Shown: positions 31,141 through 42,737 of the stretch, in pieces | How positions within the stretch are numbered: the stretch's first letter is position 1 | Layout: the number at the start of each line of letters is the position of its first letter | Source: Gammaproteobacteria bacterium | GTDB taxonomy: Bacteria; Pseudomonadota; Gammaproteobacteria; Eutrophobiales; Eutrophobiaceae | Length of the DNA: 64,000 nt | Reading direction: 5' to 3' | NCBI GenBank assembly: GCA_011772965.1 | Contig: WVYN01000014.1 | Span: 161,002 to 225,001 of the forward strand | Notes under the pieces: generated by a model | Database searches by the model: none | The model's input: the letters and a program-made list of their open reading frames with translations, nothing else | Told to the model about the DNA's origin: nothing | Position numbers and translations under genes: made by a program

Positions 31141-33693
31141 TTAGTCTTTTTTACTCAGTTGGGAATGAATATCTTCGAAAAGATTATTCGTTGCGTTTTT
31201 TGCGGCCCTTCTCGCAGCCTCGGCTTTCTCCTTGATCCGCCTGACGTGTTCAGAGTGTGACATGACTCTCGTTTGTTTCGCCTCTTCCAGCAATTGCTCT
31301 TCATTAAAAGAAGCAAGATCTGCTGCCACCTGCTGATCCAGTATGTCATGCTTGGTTGACTGTACCTCCATTTCCCTGCGTTTAATTTCTGCTGTAGTTT
31401 CCAGGTTTACCTTGACTTGATGGGCATTTTCAAGGTTCTTCTCGGCCTGTAGCAACTTGTGCTCAGCCATCCGCATCGCCTCAGCTGCTTCCTCTCTGGC
31501 CTTTTCATCAAGGGCATCCGCCTGGGCAGCCCGGAGTTTCTGTGCCTCGAGGGCTGCTGCAGCCTTGGCTGCTTCGGCCTCTTTTCTGGTTTTATCTATC
31601 TTACTCAGCGTTTGTTTGATCTTGCCGGATTCCAGCTCCAGTTGTTTTCTTTCCTGTTCCAGCCGTGCCCGTTCTTTTGCTCGTTCCTTTTCAAACTGTT
31701 TTTTATACTCTTCTATGATTTTCTTTGCTTCTTCAGCCGCCGCCTTACGTGCCGCCTCAGCAGCAGTATTTTCCTTGTTGGCCTGGTCAATCTCGTTATT
31801 GGCCTTCATGAATTCTTCGGCCAGTTTTCGTCTTTCAGCTTCAAGCGTAGCCATTGCTTTGGTCTGGATTTCCTGTTCCATCTTGGATTGTTCTTCGCGT
31901 TTTCTGGCAGACTCATCTTCTAGGGCCTTGCGTGATTCTTCAAGCTTGCGTTTGACTTCATCGGCACTCTCTAATTTTTTCCTGGCTTCCTCGGCTTCTT
32001 TCTCTATTTTTTCGCGCTCCTTGCGTAGCTGCTCCTCTGCCTGCTCCTTCAATTTCTGGAGTTTTTCCATTTCCCGGGTGTTCTTGGTATAGATTTCCTC
32101 CAGTTTCTTCTTTTCTTCTGCTAGGCGCTTTTCGGTCTCTTCTTTAAGTTTTTCAATCTTCCGTGCTTCTTCTTCCCTGAATTTTCTGGTTTCTTCCTCG
32201 GCTGCTTTCTTCGCCTCGGCAAGTTGCTTACGTTCCTCTTCGAGTTGCCTTTTCTTCTCTCTTATCTCGGTGATATCTTCATCATCTTTCGCCCCGGACA
32301 GCTTGTTACTGGTACGTTCCAGTCTGATATCATTCAGGGTCATGTCTGCATCAAGTGCAGCTGAGCGAATGCTGGGATCATCGTCCTCAGTTTCCAATTG
32401 CTGATCTTGTACTGGCTCTGGTTTTGTTTCCGCCTTGGGTGCGGCCTCGGGCACGGGTTCCATGGTTTCAGGCTTTGCTTTTTGCCCAGCTTCAGCTTTT
32501 ACCCTCGGCCTGAGATTTACACCCTCACTGTCGTCTTTCCTGGGTACAGGCTTGGCTTCCGGTTTTTTCTCAGGTTCCGCTTTCTGTTTCGGCCGCAGGT
32601 TTACTCCGCTACTTTCGACATGTGATATCGACAATCCGCCTTTCAGGACACTGGCCTTAAAGCCATTGCTAATCATGGTAAATACCGCAGCCGAGCTGCG
32701 ACCACCGGAATCACAGCAGACAAGATAATGCTTGCTCCGGTCAAGACTATCCAGTTTTGCCCTTAGAAGATTGAAAGGAATATTGATACTGCCCTTGATG
32801 TTCGACTCCTCATATTCATCCTTGAAGCGCACATCCATCCAGACCGCGGCACCACTATCAACCAGGGATTTACCCTGTTCAAAGCTTATTTCGTTCAGTG
32901 ATGGTAATGTGACCAGAGTAATGAAATTTTCCTTGCTAAGTTTCATCAAGGTGCCATCGGTCAACATGGTGACAGAGGCATTTCTGGTTCCATCTGTCAA
33001 TAAGGCCTCTTCCCCGAAACTGTCCCCGTCTTTAAGTTCCGCCAGCTTGATCGGTTTCGCGCCTTCTGAGGGGGCGCGGGAAACTTCACAATGACCTTCC
33101 TGGACGATGTAATAACTGTCTCCCGGCTCTCCTTGCTCGATAACCGTATCTCCGGCCTTGTAGTCAATGGGTTCGAGCATGACAAACAGCTGTTGAATAT
33201 TGGCGGTAGGTAACTGGCTAAAGATTTCTGATTGCAACATCTTGGTCATCCAGTCAACGGTATCATCCTGATCGATTTCGTTAACAACAAAGTGCCGACT
33301 GGTGGTGATGTCACCTTCTTCAGATTTGTCGGCAACCAGGATTCGGTCAATTGCAGCCTTGTCCAGTTGCAGAACCATGGAATCCACTTTGGCCCTGGCA
33401 GTGAACTGGCGTGGCAAGAGGCGGGCCATTGCATAACGGGCACTGTCAGTACCACCGACGATGGTACTTTTCACATCTCTGCCCGCCATTAAATCAATCT
33501 TGCCTTCCAGCAGGTAAAAGGCGTAATTGTCATGGTCCCCTTGTTTGAAGACAATATCCTTATTCTTGAACTTGAAGATCTTGCCTATCTGGACGATCTC
33601 ATTCTGTGCCTGGGGAGATATTTCATCGAAAGGCACCAGCGACTTGATCTTCTCCTTGTATGGAGCCTTGTCCTGTTCTTTATTGAATATCAT
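31141..33693 (-). CDS. Large multidomain protein: two cNMP-binding domains, a rhodanese domain with an active-site Cys, a Pro/Lys-rich linker with a tandem repeat, and a roughly 430-aa E/K/R-rich coiled-coil or single-alpha-helix C-terminal region
   Basis: It has two cNMP-binding folds (..GDSFGEEALL..), the rhodanese loop YLVCCDSGGRSS, repeated GVNLRP[KR].KAE..K.KPE units, and then hundreds of residues of EEARK/KLKE periodicity. It is 850 aa. Confidence 0.7.
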   Translation of the reverse strand: MIFNKEQDKAPYKEKIKSLVPFDEISPQAQNEIVQIGKIFKFKNKDIVFKQGDHDNYAFYLLEGKIDLMAGRDVKSTIVGGTDSARYAMARLLPRQFTARAKVDSMVLQLDKAAIDRILVADKSEEGDITTSRHFVVNEIDQDDTVDWMTKMLQSEIFSQLPTANIQQLFVMLEPIDYKAGDTVIEQGEPGDSYYIVQEGHCEVSRAPSEGAKPIKLAELKDGDSFGEEALLTDGTRNASVTMLTDGTLMKLSKENFITLVTLPSLNEISFEQGKSLVDSGAAVWMDVRFKDEYEESNIKGSINIPFNLLRAKLDSLDRSKHYLVCCDSGGRSSAAVFTMISNGFKASVLKGGLSISHVESSGVNLRPKQKAEPEKKPEAKPVPRKDDSEGVNLRPRVKAEAGQKAKPETMEPVPEAAPKAETKPEPVQDQQLETEDDDPSIRSAALDADMTLNDIRLERTSNKLSGAKDDEDITEIREKKRQLEEERKQLAEAKKAAEEETRKFREEEARKIEKLKEETEKRLAEEKKKLEEIYTKNTREMEKLQKLKEQAEEQLRKEREKIEKEAEEARKKLESADEVKRKLEESRKALEDESARKREEQSKMEQEIQTKAMATLEAERRKLAEEFMKANNEIDQANKENTAAEAARKAAAEEAKKIIEEYKKQFEKERAKERARLEQERKQLELESGKIKQTLSKIDKTRKEAEAAKAAAALEAQKLRAAQADALDEKAREEAAEAMRMAEHKLLQAEKNLENAHQVKVNLETTAEIKRREMEVQSTKHDILDQQVAADLASFNEEQLLEEAKQTRVMSHSEHVRRIKEKAEAARRAAKNATNNLFEDIHSQLSKKD
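32507..32620 (-). repeat. Imperfect tandem repeat of about 84 bp within the Pro/Lys-rich linker of the cNMP/rhodanese protein
   Basis: cggcctgagatttacaccctcactgtcgtc at 32507 matches cggccgcaggtttactccgctactttcgac at 32591. This repeat encodes the duplicated peptide GVNLRP. Confidence 0.5.
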
Positions 33694-33808
33694 GACTTAT
33701 ATCCCTTTCCCGGGATGATTAATGTACACTTTGAAACAGTCTCTTAAAGGAATGAACCAAAGCTTTAGATTATATAGATTTGGTGAGGGATAGCATACCC
33801 GTAAGTCT

Positions 33809-34498
33809 ATGAATCAATTAACACAATTAATCTCGGAACTGAATTTGATCAGTCTTGCTATCGTGGTTCTGACCGGACTACTGGGCGTGTTGCTGTTATT
33901 CCTCGGTTTGCGCCATCTCTGGCAGCGTCGCATCTTCTCGGGAGGCTTTAATGGACTGCTCGGGATTTGCCTGCTGTTGGTGGCAGCCGCAGTCCTACTG
34001 GTTACACTAAATTTGCTTACATATCATAGACTTAAATACGAAGAACCGATTCTTACCATCCATTTCAATAAGCTGGGGGAGAAACAGTATTCGGCTGATT
34101 TGAAATTAAAGGATAACGGACAAACAGCTGTCTATAACCTCTCAGGTGACGAGTGGCAAATTGATGCCCGGGTCCTGAGCTGGAAACCGCCTGCCCGGAT
34201 CCTCGGGCTGAATGCCATGTACAGGCTTGAACGTCTGCATGGGCGCTATCAGTCCATTGACCATGAGCGGCAACGTGATAGGACCGTCTACTCACTGGTT
34301 GAAAACAAGGGCCTGGATATCTGGCCACTCGTAAAAAAATATAATGACCGGATCGCCTGGGTTGATGCCTACTTTGGCAGTGCCACCTACCTGCCAATGG
34401 AAGATGATGCCACCTATGAGGTTCTTATTTCCCAGAATGGACTTATCGCCCGACCGTTAAATTCTCCGGCCCGGGCCCGCCTGAATGAATGGCAATAA
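33809..34498 (+). CDS. Hypothetical membrane protein (two N-terminal TM helices plus a soluble domain)
   Basis: The 229-aa ORF has reasonable coding statistics. No family was recognised. Confidence 0.4.
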   Translation: MNQLTQLISELNLISLAIVVLTGLLGVLLLFLGLRHLWQRRIFSGGFNGLLGICLLLVAAAVLLVTLNLLTYHRLKYEEPILTIHFNKLGEKQYSADLKLKDNGQTAVYNLSGDEWQIDARVLSWKPPARILGLNAMYRLERLHGRYQSIDHERQRDRTVYSLVENKGLDIWPLVKKYNDRIAWVDAYFGSATYLPMEDDATYEVLISQNGLIARPLNSPARARLNEWQ

Positions 34499-34518
34499 AA
34501 ACTATTTACAGGGAGCAT

Positions 34519-36624
34519 TTACTTAAACACGATGCGGATACTTACCCCACTGTCCTCCTCAAGGTTCTCGGCAACAATCTCAGCATGATGGAACTCGGCA
34601 ATGATCCGGGCAATATAAAGCCCCAGTCCCAGATGTGGACTGTCTTTCTTTTGTTTCTCACGCATAGAGACCATTGAGTCAAACAACTGTCCCTTCATGT
34701 CTTCCGGAAGTAATGGTCCATAGTTACTGACAGTGATTGAATTGACAGAGTCATCACTGGATAGAGCTATCGAAACTGGTGTATCCGGCTCACTGAAATC
34801 AACAGCATTCGAAACCAGCTTATCCAGCATCTGCATGAACAGATCAGGCGCGATGTCCATGACCTGTTCTGTGTCTGGCAAGGTCAATTCAAAACGCTGG
34901 GATGGATAGGCGATACGATAACCCTCAACCGCCTGTGTCAATAACCTGCAAATATCAACTTTAGTTTTGCCAGCTGATTGCAGGGCCTGTTCAAGGCGGG
35001 CGGCCTCACTCAGGCGTGTCACCAGAAGATTTAATCGCTGTATACCATCACGGGCACGTTGAATATAAACCTGTTTGTCTTCTTCAATACCCGAATCAAT
35101 ATTATCCAGGGAAGACTGGACCACAGCCATTGGTGTACGTAATTCATGTGACAGTTTCCCTGCCATGCCTTCCAGGTAATGATTGTACTGTTTGAGTCTC
35201 TCCAGAATAGTGGCGTAGTTGCGTGAAAGATCGCCAATTTCATCGCTGGCATGACTTTTAGACATGTCACCGATCACCCGGCCATACTCGTCTATTGCAC
35301 TTGCGGCTTCCTTACTCAAACGTTGCAGCCTGATTGAAAGGCGGCTGGCAAAGATCAAAAGCAGCAGGATGATGATGAAGAATAACAACAGGGTTTTATT
35401 GACAAGGCTGACCAGGGCATCACGTTGTAACAACTGAATGTTGTTTGTTGTCTCTTCCGCAACTACCACACCCCGGATTTCATCAAAGACCCATACCGGT
35501 GCGGCAGCAGAGACGATTACTGCTTTTTTATCGGGAGATAATCGCCAACGCGACTCCGGTTTCCCATTCAGGGCTGATTGTATTTCTTTGCCGTAAAGTC
35601 TGGAAGCACCGGCCAGATCATCCTCGAAGCGGTCTGTCACAGGCGGCAGGATAAGTTTATAAAACAGGTTCAGTGGATGTTTGCTAATGTCATGCCTGAG
35701 ATTGCCTGCATTGGCCAATACCTGTCCGCGACTGTCAAGCACCCAGATTCGCCTGCCAGGGCTGCTGTGCAGGCGGGTAATCATATTTTCCAGATGATTG
35801 TCAGGAAGAATCACCCTCCCCGGCCTGATAAGAGTATCGTTTCCAGCCGTACCAGTATATTTAAATTTTAACTGACCATTACCCGAGTCTGTATCAGCAA
35901 CAACGATTCCCAGGCGATCATGAGACAGGTTTAGTGGTAACGCTATTTCGAGATTATAACCGTTATCAAACGGTTGCCAGCTTGCAACGATATTGGTTTT
36001 ATAACGAATAAATTTTTTTTCGATCCAGTCATCACGCACTGTCTCAATCTGGAAAGGGTTGAAATTACCCGGGACCGAGGGAGCAAAATAATATTTTTGC
36101 CTGATTACATAATCATCGCCAATTACCATAATTATATGATCACTGTCTATGATTGCCTCAGTGTCAGGCTGATGATAAATGATATTTTCATCATTGATTT
36201 GCAATAAAACATGAAGAGTATTTTCAAAAATACCTGCAACCAGACGATAGGAACCGTCAGGATATGTGAATTCAGTACTTGTACCCAGTTCCCGCGGATA
36301 GATTTCAGACCAGTCGAGATACTGGATCCAGTCATCAAGATAACCATCTGTTTGTATTGGAGTGTTCAATTGATGAATAAAGAATGTTGGATCCACCGCA
36401 GTCTGTCGATCGGGGAAACGTCGATAACTCTGGTGTAATGAAGCAGCAATCGCCCTGGTGGATTCAAGGAGTGATGATTCAAGGTTAGTGCGCAATCGAT
36501 GTTCCATCTCACTCATGTATTCATAAGCGATATAGGGCAAAGTGAGTATCGCGATGGATAAAAGTAATAATTTGACGCGGATGGTGAATCGAAACCCGTC
36601 TGGCTTCTTATTTAATGACGACAC
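34519..36624 (-). CDS. Sensor histidine kinase of the proteobacterial dedicated sortase system (PdsS-like), with a large periplasmic sensor domain
   Basis: It has an N-terminal TM helix, a periplasmic region of about 380 aa, a second TM helix, a HisKA domain (LSHELRTPM) and a HATPase_c domain. It is 701 aa and lies adjacent to pdsR. Confidence 0.7.
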   Translation of the reverse strand: MSSLNKKPDGFRFTIRVKLLLLSIAILTLPYIAYEYMSEMEHRLRTNLESSLLESTRAIAASLHQSYRRFPDRQTAVDPTFFIHQLNTPIQTDGYLDDWIQYLDWSEIYPRELGTSTEFTYPDGSYRLVAGIFENTLHVLLQINDENIIYHQPDTEAIIDSDHIIMVIGDDYVIRQKYYFAPSVPGNFNPFQIETVRDDWIEKKFIRYKTNIVASWQPFDNGYNLEIALPLNLSHDRLGIVVADTDSGNGQLKFKYTGTAGNDTLIRPGRVILPDNHLENMITRLHSSPGRRIWVLDSRGQVLANAGNLRHDISKHPLNLFYKLILPPVTDRFEDDLAGASRLYGKEIQSALNGKPESRWRLSPDKKAVIVSAAAPVWVFDEIRGVVVAEETTNNIQLLQRDALVSLVNKTLLLFFIIILLLLIFASRLSIRLQRLSKEAASAIDEYGRVIGDMSKSHASDEIGDLSRNYATILERLKQYNHYLEGMAGKLSHELRTPMAVVQSSLDNIDSGIEEDKQVYIQRARDGIQRLNLLVTRLSEAARLEQALQSAGKTKVDICRLLTQAVEGYRIAYPSQRFELTLPDTEQVMDIAPDLFMQMLDKLVSNAVDFSEPDTPVSIALSSDDSVNSITVSNYGPLLPEDMKGQLFDSMVSMREKQKKDSPHLGLGLYIARIIAEFHHAEIVAENLEEDSGVSIRIVFK

Positions 36625-36652
36625 GGTAAAAACTCAATCCTGTTCAGATGTT

Positions 36653-37342
36653 CTATAGATTCCAGCGGTAACCGAGACCATATATTGTTTCAATACAGTC
36701 AAATTCCTTGTCAACAGTTATAAATTTTTTCCTGATTCTTTTGATATGCGAGGTAATAGTCCCCTCATCAACAAACATTTTTGCTTCACTCATCAATTGT
36801 TCTCTGCTTTTGACATGCCCCGGCCTGTATGCCAAAGAGTAGACGATCCAGAATTCCGTGAGGGTGACATCAATTTTGCTGGATTTCCATTCAAGCAAAA
36901 GCCGGTTTTTGTCGATCATCAAGTGGCCATGGCTGATGACATCATCTTCAGTGACCGGGTTACGAAAGGCATCGATTCTGCGAAACAGCGCAGCTATCCG
37001 GGCAAGCAACTGTGGCATGGTAATGTCCTTGGTCAGGTAATCATCCGCACCAAGTCTCAGGCCCGAGATGGTATCAAGATCCGAATCCCTGGCTGTAAGG
37101 AAAATAATCGGTACGATTTCTGAAAGGTTTCGTAATTCGCGACATAGATCGAAACCCCCCTCGTTCTCTTCACCAAGACCCACATCGATGAGTATCAGAT
37201 CTGGCAGTTTCTGGCTGAATTGTTTCAATGCCTCCTTGCGATTGGTATAGCTTGATACCTGGTATCCCTGCTTTTGCAGGGCATCCGAATAATTTTCCCG
37301 AATGTCGCTCTCATCCTCAACCAGCGCAACTGTTTTCACCAT
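36653..37342 (-). CDS. OmpR-family response regulator of the dedicated sortase system (PdsR-like)
   Basis: It has a REC domain (LVEDE..D, DLILIDVGL, K at ..TKD..) and a C-terminal winged-helix trans_reg_C domain. It is 229 aa. Confidence 0.75.
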   Translation of the reverse strand: MVKTVALVEDESDIRENYSDALQKQGYQVSSYTNRKEALKQFSQKLPDLILIDVGLGEENEGGFDLCRELRNLSEIVPIIFLTARDSDLDTISGLRLGADDYLTKDITMPQLLARIAALFRRIDAFRNPVTEDDVISHGHLMIDKNRLLLEWKSSKIDVTLTEFWIVYSLAYRPGHVKSREQLMSEAKMFVDEGTITSHIKRIRKKFITVDKEFDCIETIYGLGYRWNL

Positions 37343-37426
37343 TCAACTTCCCCGTTCTGCTCCTATGTCAATGTATAATATTTTCTGGCAAAAATATTCC
37401 CCTCACGCACAATTGCCATAATTTCG

Positions 37427-37455
37427 CCATATTTCATCGTTTCATTTCCATATTT
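37427..37455. promoter_or_regulatory. Direct repeat CCATATTT(n13)CCATATTT in the divergent pdsR/pdsO intergenic region, a candidate OmpR-type (PdsR) operator
   Basis: CCATATTT occurs at 37427-37434 and again at 37448-37455, a spacing of 21 bp. Interleaved TTTCAT repeats are also present. Confidence 0.3.
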
Positions 37456-37529
37456 TCAGCGCTGTTTGGCCACAGATAAGCGCTTAAATACTTTCCTGTA
37501 ATCGACTTGCATCAGACAGGAGAGATCAA

Positions 37530-38237
37530 ATGAAACAAGCAATATCTACCCTTCTAATCATCAGCGCATTTGCCGGTCCGGTCGCTATGGCAGATGAGCA
37601 AACGACGCTGGCTATCCATGAGACCGGTGGTTTGGGTGTTGGTGCCCTGATCGGCGGCCTCATAGCGGGACCTCCCGGAATTGTGCTGGGAGCTGCAGGC
37701 GGTGCCATTTACGGTAACCGTCAGGGTGAAAAGGAAAACCAGTTGACCGCCATGGAAAGAAAACTGCAGGACCGGGAAGTAGAGCTGGCTGTCGTTAAGA
37801 ACGAGTTATCAAAAACCCGTTCTGATTATTCCAGCAAAATGCAGAAAGTCACCCTGGACAATCGTAAGGCATCACTGGATGAGCTGACCCAGGGGATTTC
37901 CATGTCGGTTTTCTTTCGCACCAACCAGAGCCGTATCGACCTTGGCTTGAAGCCTCACTTGCACAGACTGGTGGCGCTTATACAGGACATACCGGAATTG
38001 TCCGTCAGCCTGGACGGCTATGCCGACCAGCGAGGCGATGAATCACATAACCTCCAGCTCAGCCGCGATCGTGCCCGTGCCGTGGAGGATGAACTGATCA
38101 GGGCCGGGCTCCCACGGGAACGCATCAAACAGCAGGCACATGGTGAATCCAGTGTACGTGCTGCAGACGGGGACATCGAAGGCTACGTATTTGACCGGCG
38201 CGTGGATATCGAGCTGACCGTCGAGGCCGAAGCGTAA
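37530..38237 (+). CDS. OmpA-family protein of the dedicated sortase system (PdsO-like): signal peptide, glycine-zipper, coiled coil, and a C-terminal OmpA peptidoglycan-binding domain
   Basis: It has the signal peptide, a GGLGVGALIGGLIAG glycine-zipper, and the OmpA_C motif LDGYADQRGDESHNLQLSRDRA. Confidence 0.7.
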   Translation: MKQAISTLLIISAFAGPVAMADEQTTLAIHETGGLGVGALIGGLIAGPPGIVLGAAGGAIYGNRQGEKENQLTAMERKLQDREVELAVVKNELSKTRSDYSSKMQKVTLDNRKASLDELTQGISMSVFFRTNQSRIDLGLKPHLHRLVALIQDIPELSVSLDGYADQRGDESHNLQLSRDRARAVEDELIRAGLPRERIKQQAHGESSVRAADGDIEGYVFDRRVDIELTVEAEA

Positions 38238-38262
38238 CCCGTCCTCAAGCCCAGAATCCATT

Positions 38263-40386
38263 ATGAATCTGAAAAAAACACCATTACTGGCAAATACAGT
38301 TCTGTGCATTCTCGAGAGTCTGCTGGCTGCGGCCATTGGTACTGTATTCCTGGTGTGTCTCGTCCTGTTGCTGTCTGGTATTGCCAGTGCCAATACCAGG
38401 GAAGGTATGACAGCGATGGACACCCTCAGCATCAGGGACATGGGAAACGTCACCCGTGGAAGTCTGTTGTTTCACAACAATAAGGATTATCAACTTGCCC
38501 CGACATTACATACAGATGTTGATATGAGTATCACGGGCATGATCGCCCGGGTCAAGCTGGCACAACGGTTTCATAATCCCGACACGGTCTGGCAGGAAGG
38601 CATTTATGTCTTTCCCTTGCCCGAGAATGCGGCGGTAGATCACCTGCGCATGAGGATAGGCAAAAGAGTGATAGAGGGGCAGATACGAGAACGTGAAACT
38701 GCAAAAAAAGAATATCAAAAGGCACGTGATAATGGTCAGAAAGCAAGCCTTGTGGAACAGGAACGCCCGAATATTTTTACGACTTCTGTTGCCAATATTG
38801 GTCCCGGTGAGGAGATAATCATTGAAATTGAATACCAGCAGACAGTTCGTTATGACTCAGGTGAGTTCCGCCTCAGGTTCCCGATGGTTGTTGCGCCGAG
38901 ATATATTCCGGGCAGTACAGTTGTTCAAGGCTTTTCAGGATCAGGTTGGGCAGTTAATACTGATCAGGTGCGGGATGCCGAACGCATTACCCCGCCTGTG
39001 ACAAAACCCGGTGAGACAGCAGTTAATCCGGTGATGATCGACATCCACCTGGACGCGGGCTTTCCCCTGGAGCATATCACCAGTTCCCATCATAACATCC
39101 GGATAGATCAGCAGGACGCATCAACGTATTCCATTCAACTGGAGCATGTAACCATGGCCGACAGAGATTTCGAACTTTACTGGCAACCCGAAAAGAAAGA
39201 TGCCCCACAGGCAGCATTCTTCAGGGAACGAAAACACAACATGGATTATGGATTGATCATGATGCTGCCACCCTTACAGCAAAGTGGTCAGGTGCTCAAT
39301 CGTGAGGTGGTGTTTGTGATTGATACCTCTGGTTCCATGGGTGGTCAGTCCATTATACAAGCGAGATCGGCATTAAAGATGGCTCTTGAACGCCTTAAAC
39401 CCGGCGACAGTTTCAACATTATCGAATTCAATTCACATACAGATCAGTTGTTCGAATGGCCGCGATTGGTAAATCATCAATCTTTAAGACAGGCAAAGCA
39501 ATATGTAACTGGTCTGGATGTCAGTGGCGGTACAGAAATGTTACCGGCTCTGAAACTGGCATTGAATGATAACAATAATACATCTTCGGTCAGGCAGGTA
39601 ATTTTCCTGACAGATGGCAGCATTGGCAATGAAGCCGCCCTGTTTAACACCATCACCCGGAAACTGGGCAGGAGCCGGCTATTTACAATCGGGATTGGTT
39701 CTGCACCAAATTCACATTTCATGACCAGGGCTGCACGCTTTGGCCGGGGTACCTACACATACATCGGCAAGGTCAGCGAGGTCGAAACAAAAATGTCGAC
39801 ATTATTTGGCAAACTGGAAAGCCCTGTTCTTACCAACATCCACATAGACTGGGGCGATGCCACAGACCTGGAAGCCTGGCCAAAGTACATTCCCGATCTC
39901 TATCTGGGCGAACCCCTGCTGGTAAGTGTCTCCGCTTCATCACTGCCGGAAAGGATTCGGTTAACAGGCAGCGTCTCCGGTTCACTCTGGAAAACCAGCA
40001 TGCAATTAAAAGGCCATGGTGAACATGAAGGCATCCACGCCCTTTGGGCCCGAAAAAAAATTGCGGCTTTGATGGACCTGCTCAATCAGGCAAAAGAGGA
40101 AAACAACCTTAAACAGCAAGTTATAGAGACTGCATTACGACATCACCTGGTGAGCCGGTTTACCAGCCTCATTGCTGTTGACGTTACCCCGTCGCGCATC
40201 AAGGAGGATTTACTGAGGATATCTGCCCTGCCGGTCAACCTTCCGTCCGGCTGGCAATATGAAAAAGTATTCGGTCAGTTGCCGCAGACCGCAACAGATG
40301 CGGAACTGAAAATCCTGATAGGCACGCTGCTGCTGTTAATCAGTGTGTTTCTTGTGATGAGCCGGCGTTATGTTTATCCCGACTGA
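38263..40386 (+). CDS. Sortase target protein: VIT domain plus von Willebrand factor A domain, with a C-terminal LPQTA sorting signal, TM helix and basic tail
   Basis: The VWA MIDAS motif is DTSGSMGG. The C-terminus reads LPQTATDAELKILIGTLLLLISVFLVMSRRYVYPD. The protein is 707 aa. Confidence 0.75.
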   Translation: MNLKKTPLLANTVLCILESLLAAAIGTVFLVCLVLLLSGIASANTREGMTAMDTLSIRDMGNVTRGSLLFHNNKDYQLAPTLHTDVDMSITGMIARVKLAQRFHNPDTVWQEGIYVFPLPENAAVDHLRMRIGKRVIEGQIRERETAKKEYQKARDNGQKASLVEQERPNIFTTSVANIGPGEEIIIEIEYQQTVRYDSGEFRLRFPMVVAPRYIPGSTVVQGFSGSGWAVNTDQVRDAERITPPVTKPGETAVNPVMIDIHLDAGFPLEHITSSHHNIRIDQQDASTYSIQLEHVTMADRDFELYWQPEKKDAPQAAFFRERKHNMDYGLIMMLPPLQQSGQVLNREVVFVIDTSGSMGGQSIIQARSALKMALERLKPGDSFNIIEFNSHTDQLFEWPRLVNHQSLRQAKQYVTGLDVSGGTEMLPALKLALNDNNNTSSVRQVIFLTDGSIGNEAALFNTITRKLGRSRLFTIGIGSAPNSHFMTRAARFGRGTYTYIGKVSEVETKMSTLFGKLESPVLTNIHIDWGDATDLEAWPKYIPDLYLGEPLLVSVSASSLPERIRLTGSVSGSLWKTSMQLKGHGEHEGIHALWARKKIAALMDLLNQAKEENNLKQQVIETALRHHLVSRFTSLIAVDVTPSRIKEDLLRISALPVNLPSGWQYEKVFGQLPQTATDAELKILIGTLLLLISVFLVMSRRYVYPD

Positions 40387-40993
40387 AAAAATATTATTTA
40401 TTTGCTTACTCACTACTGTGACCTTTTGTGGCTTGTGGCAGGTAGGTCATGGTGCCTACATCCATGCCAAGGCAATCCTAGCGCAACTCCTCCTAGAGTC
40501 GGCATGGTCAGAAACACTGTCCGGGGCAAGGGAGGTGAAACCATGGCCCTGGGCAGATACCTGGCCAGTCAGCCGACTTGCTGCCCCACGCCTTGGGATA
40601 AGCCGCATCGTCCTGGCCGGGGCAAGTGGTGCTTCACTTGCCTTCGGTCCAGGACATCTTTTTGGTACGGCGCCCGCAGATCAAGCGGGAAACAGCGTCA
40701 TTGCCGGTCACAGGGATACACATTTTAGATTTCTGCAATACCTGACCGATGGCGATATATTGTTGCTTGAAACCAGTGAAGGAAAACAAAGACGATATCA
40801 GGTAACACTTACCCGGGTTATCCATGAAAGTGAAATCGGCTACCTGCAGCAGACCAGAGAAAATCGCCTGACGCTTATTACCTGTTTTCCCTTCAACAGC
40901 CCGGTGGCCGGTGGTGCACAACGATATATTGTCATTGCCCGGGAAATCGAGAAGGTAGATGGGATTGATTCCGGGGCAATAATTGCCATCTAG
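40370..40993 (+). CDS. Sortase (proteobacterial/marine type transpeptidase)
   Basis: It has an N-terminal TM anchor, the catalytic His in AGHRDTHF, the catalytic Cys in LTLITCFP, and a downstream Arg. It overlaps the target gene by 17 bp. Confidence 0.75.
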   Translation: MFIPTEKILFICLLTTVTFCGLWQVGHGAYIHAKAILAQLLLESAWSETLSGAREVKPWPWADTWPVSRLAAPRLGISRIVLAGASGASLAFGPGHLFGTAPADQAGNSVIAGHRDTHFRFLQYLTDGDILLLETSEGKQRRYQVTLTRVIHESEIGYLQQTRENRLTLITCFPFNSPVAGGAQRYIVIAREIEKVDGIDSGAIIAI

Positions 40994-41080
40994 ACAGAAT
41001 CTTTACAGATTTACATGAGGCAATAATTGCTGATCTGATATATTAAAGCCTGTTTTTCTCTTACGAATAAGGAGGACCAG

Positions 41081-41902
41081 ATGGAAAAACTGGGTTTAGA
41101 TAAACTGGGCATCAGTGATATTGGCATCAGCCTGCTCATAAATTTCACTACAGCAATTGCTATTCTCATCATTGGCTGGTGGATAGCTAAACTGATCCGC
41201 AAGGCGCTGGTCAAGGTCATGACCAGGAAAGAAATAGATAGTCTGTTGGTCTCATTTACCAGTAATGTGGTTTACCTGGCACTGGTTGCATTTATCTTTA
41301 TTTCTGCACTCAGCGAGCTTGGTGTTCAAACGACTTCATTCATTGCAATCATCGGCGCGGCCGGTCTGGCTATTGGTCTGTCTTTGCAGGGTTCACTGTC
41401 AAACTTTGCATCCGGTGTCATGATCATTTTCTTTCGTCCCTTCAAGGTCGGGGATTTTATCGAGGCGGGCGGAATCAGCGGTATAGTCGAAGGTATACAA
41501 ATATTCTCTACGCAAATGCGTACTGGCGATAATAAATCTATCATCATACCGAACTCAAGTATTACCAGTGGCACCATAACAAATTACTCGGCTAAATCTG
41601 AACGACGTGTAGATATGACATTCGGAATCGGTTATGACGATGACATAAGGAAAGCAAAACAGATCTTGGAGGATATTCTATCAGCAGATGATCGCATCCT
41701 GAAGGATCCGGCACCGGTCATTGCCATGGGAGCACTTGCAGACAGTAGCATTAATATTCTTGTCCGTCCCTGGGTAAAAACAGAGGATTACTGAGCGGTC
41801 TTTTGGGATCTGACTGAAAAGGTAAAACTCCGGTTCGATGAGGAAAATATCAGAATTCCGTTCCCGCAACGGGACGTACACCTGCACCAAGTTGCAGCCT
41901 GA
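41081..41902 (+). pseudogene. mscS: Small-conductance mechanosensitive channel MscS interrupted by an in-frame TGA at 41792-41794; the ORF as called ends at 41794
   Basis: The MscS TM3 and beta domain are recognisable. After the TGA the same frame continues as AVFWDLTEKVKLRFDEENIRIPFPQRDVHL, the conserved MscS C-terminus, to a stop at 41900-41902. Confidence 0.6.
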
Positions 41903-41939
41903 TTGTTAACATAACGGGAAAGCTATGTTGTCTTCCCAT

Positions 41940-42737
41940 TTATTTCTTGCCATAGAGTTCGATGTATTTTTTCGCGCGTTCCTTGCCTTGCGACAAATCA
42001 TCCCGTTCCATTTTTGATTCCATGATGGCGATATTCAACCCAGCCTGTTCTGCACCTCCGGACTCGGCCACCTTGAACCAGGCATAGGATTCCACCCAGT
42101 CGGGTTCTACTCCCTGACCTTCATGGTACATGGCACCCAGGCTGTTTTGCGCCTCTGCAAATCCCTGCTCTGCGGCTTTCCGATACCAGCTCATGGCCTC
42201 GACATAGTCCTGCTCTACACCTTTGCCCAGGAAATACATCAACCCAAGATTATTCTGTGCCCGTTTTCCACCCAGCTCTGCTGCCTTGCGCCAGTAACTT
42301 ACAGCAAGATCGATATCGCGCTTTATCCCTTCACCCCGGTAATACAGCAGCGCCATGTTTTGCATGGAGTCAATATGATTCTTTGCCACAGCCTTTTCAT
42401 ACCATGCTATAGCTGTCGGTATGTCCTTCTCGACCACAATGCCGTTTTGGTAGAACATCGCCACGTTATGTGAGGCACCTGCCGATCCCAGCTCCGCAGC
42501 GAGCCTGTATAGTTCCAGCGCCCGGGAATAATCCTGAGTGACACCTTGTCCTTCACGATACATGTTACCCAGGTAAAATTGCGCCTGCATATCACCGGCA
42601 GCAGCTAACCGGGTAAAGCCTTCCAGGGCTTTGGTATAATCACCATCGCTATAGGACTGGTAAACCTGATCAAAATCTGTGTCAGCATACAATGGGCCTG
42701 CCAGGATAAAGAAAACAATTAGCAATATTTTTTTCAT
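41940..42737 (-). CDS. Sel1-repeat protein with a signal peptide
   Basis: The signal peptide MKKILLIVFFILAGPLYA precedes about six Sel1 repeats. The start is moved to MKKIL. Confidence 0.65.
   Translation of the reverse strand: MKKILLIVFFILAGPLYADTDFDQVYQSYSDGDYTKALEGFTRLAAAGDMQAQFYLGNMYREGQGVTQDYSRALELYRLAAELGSAGASHNVAMFYQNGIVVEKDIPTAIAWYEKAVAKNHIDSMQNMALLYYRGEGIKRDIDLAVSYWRKAAELGGKRAQNNLGLMYFLGKGVEQDYVEAMSWYRKAAEQGFAEAQNSLGAMYHEGQGVEPDWVESYAWFKVAESGGAEQAGLNIAIMESKMERDDLSQGKERAKKYIELYGKK

Follow-up and report, generated by a model that had tools for sequence, protein, structure and literature searches.

Pairs of a lone sortase and a lone substrate in Gram-negative bacteria have been noted since early comparative-genomic surveys (cited in PMC8225981, PMC3237569). 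The closest described system to the one analysed here is the proteobacterial dedicated sortase (pds) system, defined in NCBIfam/TIGRFAMs by five families (TIGR03784, TIGR03785, TIGR03787, TIGR03788 and TIGR03789) and exemplified by SO2192–SO2196 of Shewanella oneidensis. We analysed a 64,000-nt stretch of contig WVYN01000014.1 (‘the window’; all positions are window coordinates on the forward strand), which carries five adjacent genes coding for a sensor kinase, a response regulator, an OmpA-like protein, a VIT+VWA sortase target and a sortase. The five families, their order and their orientation are identical to those of the S. oneidensis example, and in both cases one LPxTA-type substrate adjoins its sortase; unlike there, the host is an uncultured gammaproteobacterium, and the OmpA-like protein PdsO falls narrowly under the curated cutoff of its family. 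The locus itself is a further case of a known and routinely annotated system, with standard pipelines already naming four of the five genes, and what is newly added here is a conserved operator, the recognition of target and sortase as the core with PdsO as an accessory, and a broader taxonomic range. The overall explanation that we favour, at a probability of roughly 0.6, is that of a damage-induced pds locus with its target tethered to peptidoglycan.

Two Shewanella species provide the physiological background. In S. algae, a recurrent pdsS mutation, G547W, came with carbapenem resistance and with increased expression of all five genes: 4.8-fold for pdsS, 18.2-fold for pdsR, 126-fold for the sortase, 388-fold for the target and 799-fold for pdsO (PMC11580497). 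For S. oneidensis, a 2023 preprint renamed SO2192/SO2193 – by context the same TIGR03785/TIGR03787 pair – PghK/PghR, and reported that ampicillin, vancomycin, D-cycloserine and loss of PBP1a switch the pair on, that the pair induces blaA, relV and SO2194–96 (>17-fold with ampicillin or PBP1a loss) and that its function needs a CBM9-like module in the periplasmic domain of the kinase, R177, Y178 and I289 being essential residues (bioRxiv 10.1101/2023.05.05.539549; the PghKR work is cited as submitted in a 2026 paper, PMC13488354). These studies bear directly on a first-pass annotation of the window that had been made by a model from the sequence alone. Co-expression of the five genes, on which its view of the locus as one system leans, is experimentally shown in both Shewanella species (PMC11580497; bioRxiv 10.1101/2023.05.05.539549), while its description of the inducing signal as unknown is outdated, as the orthologous PghK/PghR responds to peptidoglycan damage. 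Its statements that the biological role and the attachment acceptor are unknown still hold, and the authors of the preprint say the same of the role of the Gram-negative sortase (bioRxiv 10.1101/2023.05.05.539549).

In the window, the five genes and the elements that accompany them are arranged in two divergent operons:

34519–36624, minus strand: pdsS (PghK-type) sensor histidine kinase, 701 aa (TIGR03785; Pfam HisKA and HATPase_c)
35395–36519, minus strand: periplasmic sensor domain of PdsS, approximately residues 36–410 (CBM9-like beta-sandwich and PDC/Cache-like module)
36653–37342, minus strand: pdsR (PghR-type) OmpR/PhoB-family response regulator, 229 aa (TIGR03787; Pfam Response_reg and Trans_reg_C)
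37413–37478, plus strand: predicted PdsR operator, six phased half-sites forming three 22-bp boxes (cross-locus conservation)
37484–37489, plus strand: −10-like hexamer TTAAAT of the pdsO operon promoter (conserved T.taAT in the alignment)
37518–37522, plus strand: Shine-Dalgarno sequence AGGAG, 7 nt 5' of the pdsO ATG at 37530 (sequence reading)
37530–38237, plus strand: pdsO-like protein, 235 aa (TIGR03789 as best model; Pfam OmpA)
38263–40386, plus strand: VIT+VWA sortase target, 707 aa (TIGR03788; Pfam VIT and VWA_3)
40279–40383, plus strand: sorting signal of the target, LPQTA-TDA, hydrophobic helix and basic tail RRY (sequence reading and alignment of relatives)
40370–40993, plus strand: class GN sortase, 207 aa (TIGR03784; Pfam Sortase)

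The gene coordinates and strands, the 17 nt shared by the end of the target gene and the start of the sortase gene (40370–40386), the LPQTA-transmembrane-RRY ending, the TLITC cysteine and the glycine zipper had all been called in the first-pass annotation, and both open reading frames (ORFs) and sequence agree with them. We scored the five proteins against the NCBIfam hidden Markov models (HMMs) with their curated cutoffs, and assigned domains with Pfam. As the first-pass annotation had anticipated, the proteins belong to the pds families, four of the five passing the cutoffs: the kinase (TIGR03785, 634.3 bits, cutoff 612.2, with positions 1–701 of the 703 in the profile covered), the regulator (TIGR03787, 367.0 bits, cutoff 335.7, with CreB as the runner-up model), the target (TIGR03788, 822.5 bits, cutoff 551.65) and the sortase (TIGR03784, class GN sortase, 218.6 bits, cutoff 158.25, profile positions 3–174 of 174). 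The fifth, the OmpA-like protein, matches the PdsO model TIGR03789 best, at 139.0 bits against a cutoff of 152.2 (runner-up YiaD family, 96.8 bits), and sits in the canonical slot between regulator and target, as it does in loci L002, L004, L019, L023, L063, L079 and L081 of our collection of relatives. Because ten of its relatives score 137.1–153.5 bits with this model, only one of them passing and TIGR03789 always being the best model by more than 40 bits, the PdsO of the window is typical of a clade lying just beyond the reach of the curated cutoff. We therefore hold it almost certain that this is a complete pds locus. An Rfam scan of 33000–42000 returned no match.

PdsO carries a cleavable signal peptide without a lipobox cysteine, the glycine zipper GGLGVGALIGGLIAGPPGIVLGAAGGAIYG, a coiled-coil region and an OmpA-like peptidoglycan-binding domain (Pfam OmpA, 51.1 bits), in which we take the segment GYADQRGDESHNLQLSRDRA to be the diaminopimelate-binding motif of such domains. 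The seeming truncation of PdsO in the 97%-identical relative L083 is artefactual and stems from a scaffold gap, the absent part being filled with N.

The regulatory region that separates both operons is where the locus yields most. The first-pass annotation had proposed two copies of CCATATTT, at 37427 and 37448, as an operator candidate. Enrichment of this 8-mer within the window was rejected as an argument, being not significant (six copies found against 3.95 expected), so it is from conservation across species that the repeats draw their significance. On that measure, the candidate survives as part of a conserved direct-repeat array and not as a pair in its own right: the copies turn out to be half-sites 2 and 4 in an array of six (37413–37478), in which the conserved C positions are 37417, 37428, 37438, 37449, 37460 and 37471. 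The pattern is TGCCAT-N5-GCCAC with an 11-bp period; the best-conserved half-site pair is 37416/37427, not 37427/37448, and the strongest tandem pair is TTGCCATAATT / TCGCCATATTT at 37413–37434.

Conservation was assessed by aligning 37 non-redundant regulator-operon intergenic regions of relatives. The spaced motif CCAY-N7-CCAY (37416/37427 in the window) is present on the operon strand in 19 of the 37 regions and on the opposite strand in none, whereas dinucleotide shuffling yields 1.05 on average and 6 at most; its density is 2.25 per kb in the intergenic regions versus 0.065 per kb elsewhere in the same loci. A position weight matrix (PWM) refined on the 37 regions (24.5 bits; consensus TGCCATnnTTTcGCCACaTTTnnTC...ttGCC) scores the operator at 32.9 bits, the next best site in the 64-kb window reaching 19.6, so that the site is unique there. 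The PWM was then applied to 35 loci without an adjacent regulator, none of which had been used to build it: seven carry sites of 18.8–26.9 bits (mean per-locus control maximum, 8.3 bits), located 44–227 nt upstream of the target or pdsO start, and no site was found in this test in the Alphaproteobacterial and Nitrospira loci. Furthermore, in an anchored alignment of 32 sites C is conserved at columns 4, 15, 25, 36, 47 and 58, as is T.taAT further on, at columns 71–76; the PWM had been trained on a region that includes neither the −10-like box nor C columns 47 and 58.

Tandem direct repeats with a period of approximately 11 bp, conserved upstream of the operon, are what an OmpR/PhoB-type regulator binds, and we regard the six-half-site array as a putative PdsR operator. 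The promoter of the pdsO operon lacks a consensus −35 element, and the promoter-proximal operator box fills that position; in our reading, the array consists of three helically phased 22-bp boxes, of which the proximal one replaces the −35 element. Three phased boxes with the proximal one at −35 are the typical layout of PhoB and OmpR operators. The likeness to PhoB pho boxes and to the OmpR F1-F2-F3 sites extends to the 11-bp tandem repeats, the several phased 22-bp boxes and the recognisable −10 box; the half-site itself is different, TGCCAY here versus CTGTCAT for PhoB and TTCAC for CreB. Scans of 33600–41900 for sigma-70 promoters and terminators gave no more than shuffle expectation, with none in the intergenic region, which fits an activator-dependent promoter. 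Autoregulation of pdsRS by the array is also probable, since only ~70 nt separate its start from the start codon of pdsR. The 64-kb window holds no second operator site that would mark further regulon members such as blaA or relV, and these two outputs of PghK/PghR were not found near the locus. The preprint reports neither a PghR binding site nor an electrophoretic mobility shift assay (EMSA) (bioRxiv 10.1101/2023.05.05.539549), and we found no published description of the operator in the literature searched.

Several variants of this arrangement were encountered. In loci L010, L017 and L067 the second half-site is TCATCAC instead of GCCAC, and lies 10 nt rather than 11 nt from the first; these intergenic regions score poorly with the ungapped PWM, which hints that the site tolerates some variation in its spacing or sequence. 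In a Zoogloeaceae locus (L045, 7070–7943) regulator and target are separated by an additional ORF, whose product has a CxxCH haem-binding motif and a signal peptide, and operator-like sites are present beside the regulator as well as 161 nt upstream of the target. In the window, a perfect inverted repeat, AATATTTT-N6-AAAATATT (37377–37398), lies between the pdsR start codon and the operator and is partly conserved in L081; it could represent the pdsR promoter region or the site of a second regulator.

Relatives of the target are numerous. We recovered at least 8000 protein clusters at E ≤ 1e-20, some of which may be VIT+VWA proteins with other sorting signals, and at least 320 species-representative genomes hold a relative; the best 80 of these at least 320 genomes are distributed over Gamma-, Beta- and Alphaproteobacteria, Nitrospira, Acidobacteriota, Methylomirabilota, Gemmatimonadota and Desulfobacterota. 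The system is thus neither rare, as the first-pass annotation had called it, nor confined to marine Proteobacteria. The matches are mostly environmental, metagenome-assembled genomes, with no Shewanella among those listed, and the search for PdsO homologues likewise listed none; the nearest relatives of the target are themselves metagenomic (97% and 75% identity), the others among the matches listed being at most ~62% identical. Target homologues are also encoded on alphaproteobacterial plasmids or chromids, in Rhizobium, Phyllobacterium, Brucella anthropi and Novosphingobium. RefSeq annotates one such Rhizobium plasmid pair as ‘marine proteobacterial sortase target protein’ and ‘class GN sortase’. 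On the Rhizobium leguminosarum plasmid pSK03 (locus L084, NZ_CP022567.1 170190–182166) the pair has no kinase, regulator or PdsO, and in this one record it lies directly downstream of a family 39 glycosyltransferase.

While the first-pass annotation expected the five genes to be conserved together, this holds for target and sortase, and not for the rest. The sortase lies directly downstream of the target in 71 of the 72 loci with enough downstream sequence. Upstream, as counted in the 55 loci with at least 4.2 kb of upstream sequence, a divergent regulator is present in 27, with the kinase beside it in 24, and PdsO in only eight (10/81 by clustering). All-against-all ORF clustering over 5 kb at 81 loci recovered target, sortase, regulator, kinase and PdsO as the only conserved families, and no further partner such as a secretion system, a glycosyltransferase or an acceptor protein; the other clusters were antisense artefacts of the target gene and sporadic neighbours, e.g. 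a transcriptional-regulator/aminotransferase-like family (13 loci) and MscS (six loci). The constant unit is therefore target plus sortase, the two-component system is a frequent add-on, and PdsO is an accessory of a gammaproteobacterial subgroup.

Hydrophobic segments at residues ~17–35 and ~411–431 of PdsS flank a periplasmic domain of ~375 aa, close to the 380 aa first estimated. It has no Pfam match above threshold; an AlphaFold2 model built with 26 homologues (predicted local distance difference test score, pLDDT, 83.2; predicted template modelling score, pTM, 0.79) predicts a beta-sandwich followed by an alpha/beta module, and two homologues of the domain pass the Pfam CBM9_1 gathering score, which together point to a CBM9-like module in the PdsS sensor. 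This evidence from the homologues was obtained before we found the PghK preprint, and the sensor architecture described there, a CBM9-like module with an alpha/beta subdomain, is thus independently recovered here. In several betaproteobacterial loci the kinase match starts only at around residue 290, in agreement with the report that most betaproteobacterial PghK homologues have no CBM9 (bioRxiv 10.1101/2023.05.05.539549).

On the substrate side, the N-terminal hydrophobic segment of the target, a signal peptide, ends in ASA (residues 41–43, A43 being invariant among relatives), and is followed by a VIT domain (83–191, 128.6 bits) and a VWA domain (348–499, VWA_3, 93.3 bits) with an intact metal-ion-dependent adhesion site (MIDAS), of which D354, S356, S358, T424 and D451 are all invariant. 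The C-terminus, LPQTATDAELKILIGTLLLLISVFLVMSRRYVYPD, holds LPQTA at residue 673 within a tripartite signal composed of LPQTATDA, ELKILIGTLLLLISVFLVM and SRRY; the extended signal is conserved as [LMFY]PxT[AS]TxA with P674, T676, T678 and A680 invariant, and the 64-kb window has no other credible sorting signal. Residues 83–641 are homologous to the VIT-VWA region of PARP4 (E 6.6e-33) and residues 344–638 to ITIH1/ITIH4; like the target, the ITIH heavy chains and vault PARP4 have a VIT domain and then a VWA domain with a MIDAS. ITIH heavy chains are cleaved near the C-terminus and ester-linked through it to glycosaminoglycan, a parallel that goes no further than analogy, as this linkage is an ester that no sortase makes, in an entirely different cellular setting. 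Related VIT+VWA proteins use other sorting systems, GlyGly-CTERM and PEP-CTERM (PMC3237569).

The sortase has an N-terminal membrane anchor and a complete set of catalytic residues, H114 in GHRDTH, C172 in TLITC and R185 in QRYIV, as aligned to PDB 2LN7. Outside class GN, its closest models are those of class D sortases (NF058671, ‘LPxTATN-specific’, 80.7 bits), and the closest solved structure is again 2LN7, the Bacillus anthracis class D sortase (E 1.3e-10, at low identity); a class C sortase, 8T28, is also among the PDB matches (E 3.2e-08). In B. anthracis, it is the diaminopimelate cross-bridge that receives the substrates of the class D enzyme, and Gram-negative peptidoglycan contains meso-diaminopimelate. 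With the Bacillus class D sortases (B. anthracis SrtC/SrtD) the enzyme shares an alignable set of HRDT, TLxTC and R motifs and a signal with Ala after Thr; it differs in its diderm host, its GN-class-specific N-terminal region and what appears to be a single dedicated substrate. The B. anthracis enzyme of 2LN7 prefers LPNTA (PMC4498605). In the literature searched we found no enzyme assay of transpeptidation by a class GN sortase on an LPxTA signal.

Put together, these features suggest the following sequence of events. PdsS would, as shown for its orthologues, sense peptidoglycan damage through its CBM9-like beta-sandwich and PDC/Cache module and phosphorylate PdsR. PdsR~P would bind the six TGCCAY-type half-sites with their ~11-bp period (37413–37478), a site located by comparative genomics, and, with the array ending at the −35 position upstream of TTAAAT, would activate pdsO-target-sortase in the manner of PhoB/OmpR. 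Judging by its sequence, the VIT+VWA protein would leave the cytoplasm through Sec, its C-terminal helix keeping it in the inner membrane. By the chemistry of the family, the membrane-anchored sortase (H114/C172/R185) would cut LPQT|A and form a thioacyl intermediate. The step that follows is the least certain: this intermediate would be resolved by peptidoglycan, through the side-chain amine of its meso-diaminopimelate, leaving a metal-dependent (MIDAS) binding protein covalently tethered to the cell wall in the periplasm; PdsO, which has a glycine zipper and an OmpA-like domain and is no lipoprotein, would bind peptidoglycan non-covalently as an accessory factor in the gammaproteobacterial subgroup. 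We favour peptidoglycan as the acceptor because the sortase is nearest to class D, the signal, like LPNTA, has Ala after Thr and Gram-negative peptidoglycan contains diaminopimelate. Of the two parts of this explanation, that the locus is switched on by cell-wall damage through PdsS/PdsR at the repeat array appears likely to us, whereas that the sortase anchors the VIT+VWA protein to peptidoglycan, argued by analogy with class D, we would put at even odds.

Several observations weigh against this explanation. Deletion of SO2194, SO2195 or SO2196 left ampicillin resistance of S. oneidensis unchanged (bioRxiv 10.1101/2023.05.05.539549), which leaves unproven what the anchored protein does for the cell. 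Activation by peptidoglycan-targeting stress has been demonstrated for S. oneidensis and S. algae only (bioRxiv 10.1101/2023.05.05.539549), and our operator comparison contains no Shewanella locus, the place where regulation has been measured. Around half of the target-sortase pairs have no adjacent kinase or regulator, and most of those have no operator, so the link to cell-wall damage may be confined to a subset of pairs. Finally, binding of PdsR to the repeats is a prediction, as is peptidoglycan as the acceptor, and the host is uncultured.

What the sortase does with the cleaved target admits of other answers. It could mainly be a processing protease, cutting the target off its membrane anchor with water as nucleophile, so that the VIT+VWA protein ends up soluble in the periplasm or medium. 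Sortases hydrolyse their substrates when a nucleophile is lacking, which counts for this possibility. No acceptor is known, and the three-gene deletions were without an ampicillin phenotype (bioRxiv 10.1101/2023.05.05.539549). However, the fully conserved H/C/R triad and the strict PxT[AS]TxA exceed the needs of simple release, and the use of GlyGly-CTERM and PEP-CTERM by related VIT+VWA proteins (PMC3237569) points to sorting or anchoring as what they have in common. We consider release the best-placed of the alternatives and still improbable.

Next in rank, and to our minds also improbable, comes protein-protein ligation of the kind that pilus-assembling class C sortases perform, with the VIT+VWA protein joined to a partner such as PdsO, a Braun-type lipoprotein or an outer-membrane protein. 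Co-transcription of pdsO and its induction in S. algae, the strongest of any gene there (799-fold, PMC11580497), count for this, as does the class C enzyme 8T28 among the PDB matches; the closest HMM classes are, however, class D and not class C, and no other neighbour is conserved. PdsO had been put forward in the first-pass annotation as a possible anchor. Its presence in just 8/55 loci (10/81 by clustering), against a sortase that follows its target in 71/72, argues against it as a general attachment partner and makes that mechanism unlikely.

A lipid or a non-peptidoglycan glycan (a lipid II-like carrier, lipopolysaccharide core or exopolysaccharide) as the attachment point, for display on the surface, is distinctly less plausible again. 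The ester linkage of the homologous ITIH heavy chains to glycosaminoglycan and the glycosyltransferase beside one Rhizobium plasmid pair speak in its favour, but the Rhizobium case is single, no conserved secretion, glycosyltransferase or carrier gene emerged over the 81 loci, and the known sortase nucleophiles are peptide amines. Lastly, adjacency of the five genes by chance or local synteny, suggested by the loci that lack kinase, regulator or PdsO and by the synteny of flanking genes in close relatives (the cNMP-binding/rhodanese gene, the 229-aa ORF and the MscS gene described below), is largely refuted already by the co-induction of the five genes in two Shewanella species (PMC11580497; bioRxiv 10.1101/2023.05.05.539549), by the operator found between both operons in distantly related phyla and by curated equivalog models that for all five families were built on co-occurrence, and can be set aside as most improbable.

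The flanks of the locus hold genes of a more local distribution. At 31141–33693 (minus strand) lies a gene for an 850-aa protein, whose orthologue in L081 has cyclic-nucleotide (cNMP)-binding and rhodanese domains, and whose very long C-terminal half is Glu/Lys/Ala-rich and coiled-coil-like; in the window, as in L081/L082, L002, L004 and L063 (38–67% identity), it adjoins the pds locus, and it is absent from the other pds loci. Between this gene and pdsS, at 33809–34498 (plus strand), is an unannotated ORF for a predicted membrane protein of 229 aa, 65% identical to its counterpart in L081 and 46–47% to those in L004 and L063, always in the same position. We rejected this ORF as a sixth component, since it has no Pfam or NCBIfam match and occurs only in loci that share the cNMP-binding/rhodanese gene (L004, L063, L081/L082); it is probably a lineage-specific neighbour reflecting local synteny. 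Directly 3' of the sortase, with no terminator called between them, lies a gene for an MscS-type mechanosensitive channel (41081–41794, plus strand); MscS genes are present within a few kb downstream in six related loci, immediately so only in the closest relatives.

The function of Gram-negative sortases has been an open question since about 2001, and in Shewanella the kinase/regulator pair of this system has lately been linked with resistance to beta-lactams, in one instance in a clinical S. algae case. The operator provides a defined sequence that can be used for EMSA, for reporter design and for regulon prediction across phyla. A core of target and sortase with an accessory PdsO narrows the candidate acceptors, and many lineages run the pair without this regulatory input. 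A bolder proposal, which we hold tentatively and rate as rather doubtful, is that the array is an undescribed PdsR/PghR operator extending from Gammaproteobacteria to Acidobacteriota, that it defines a cell-wall-damage regulon with the sortase operon as its ancestral output, and that upon peptidoglycan damage, which the CBM9 module would sense by binding glycan, the sortase covalently staples the MIDAS-bearing target onto the diaminopimelate of the sacculus. If true, this would be the first case of sortase-mediated peptidoglycan anchoring in a diderm, and the anchored protein would serve as an inducible brace or repair scaffold.

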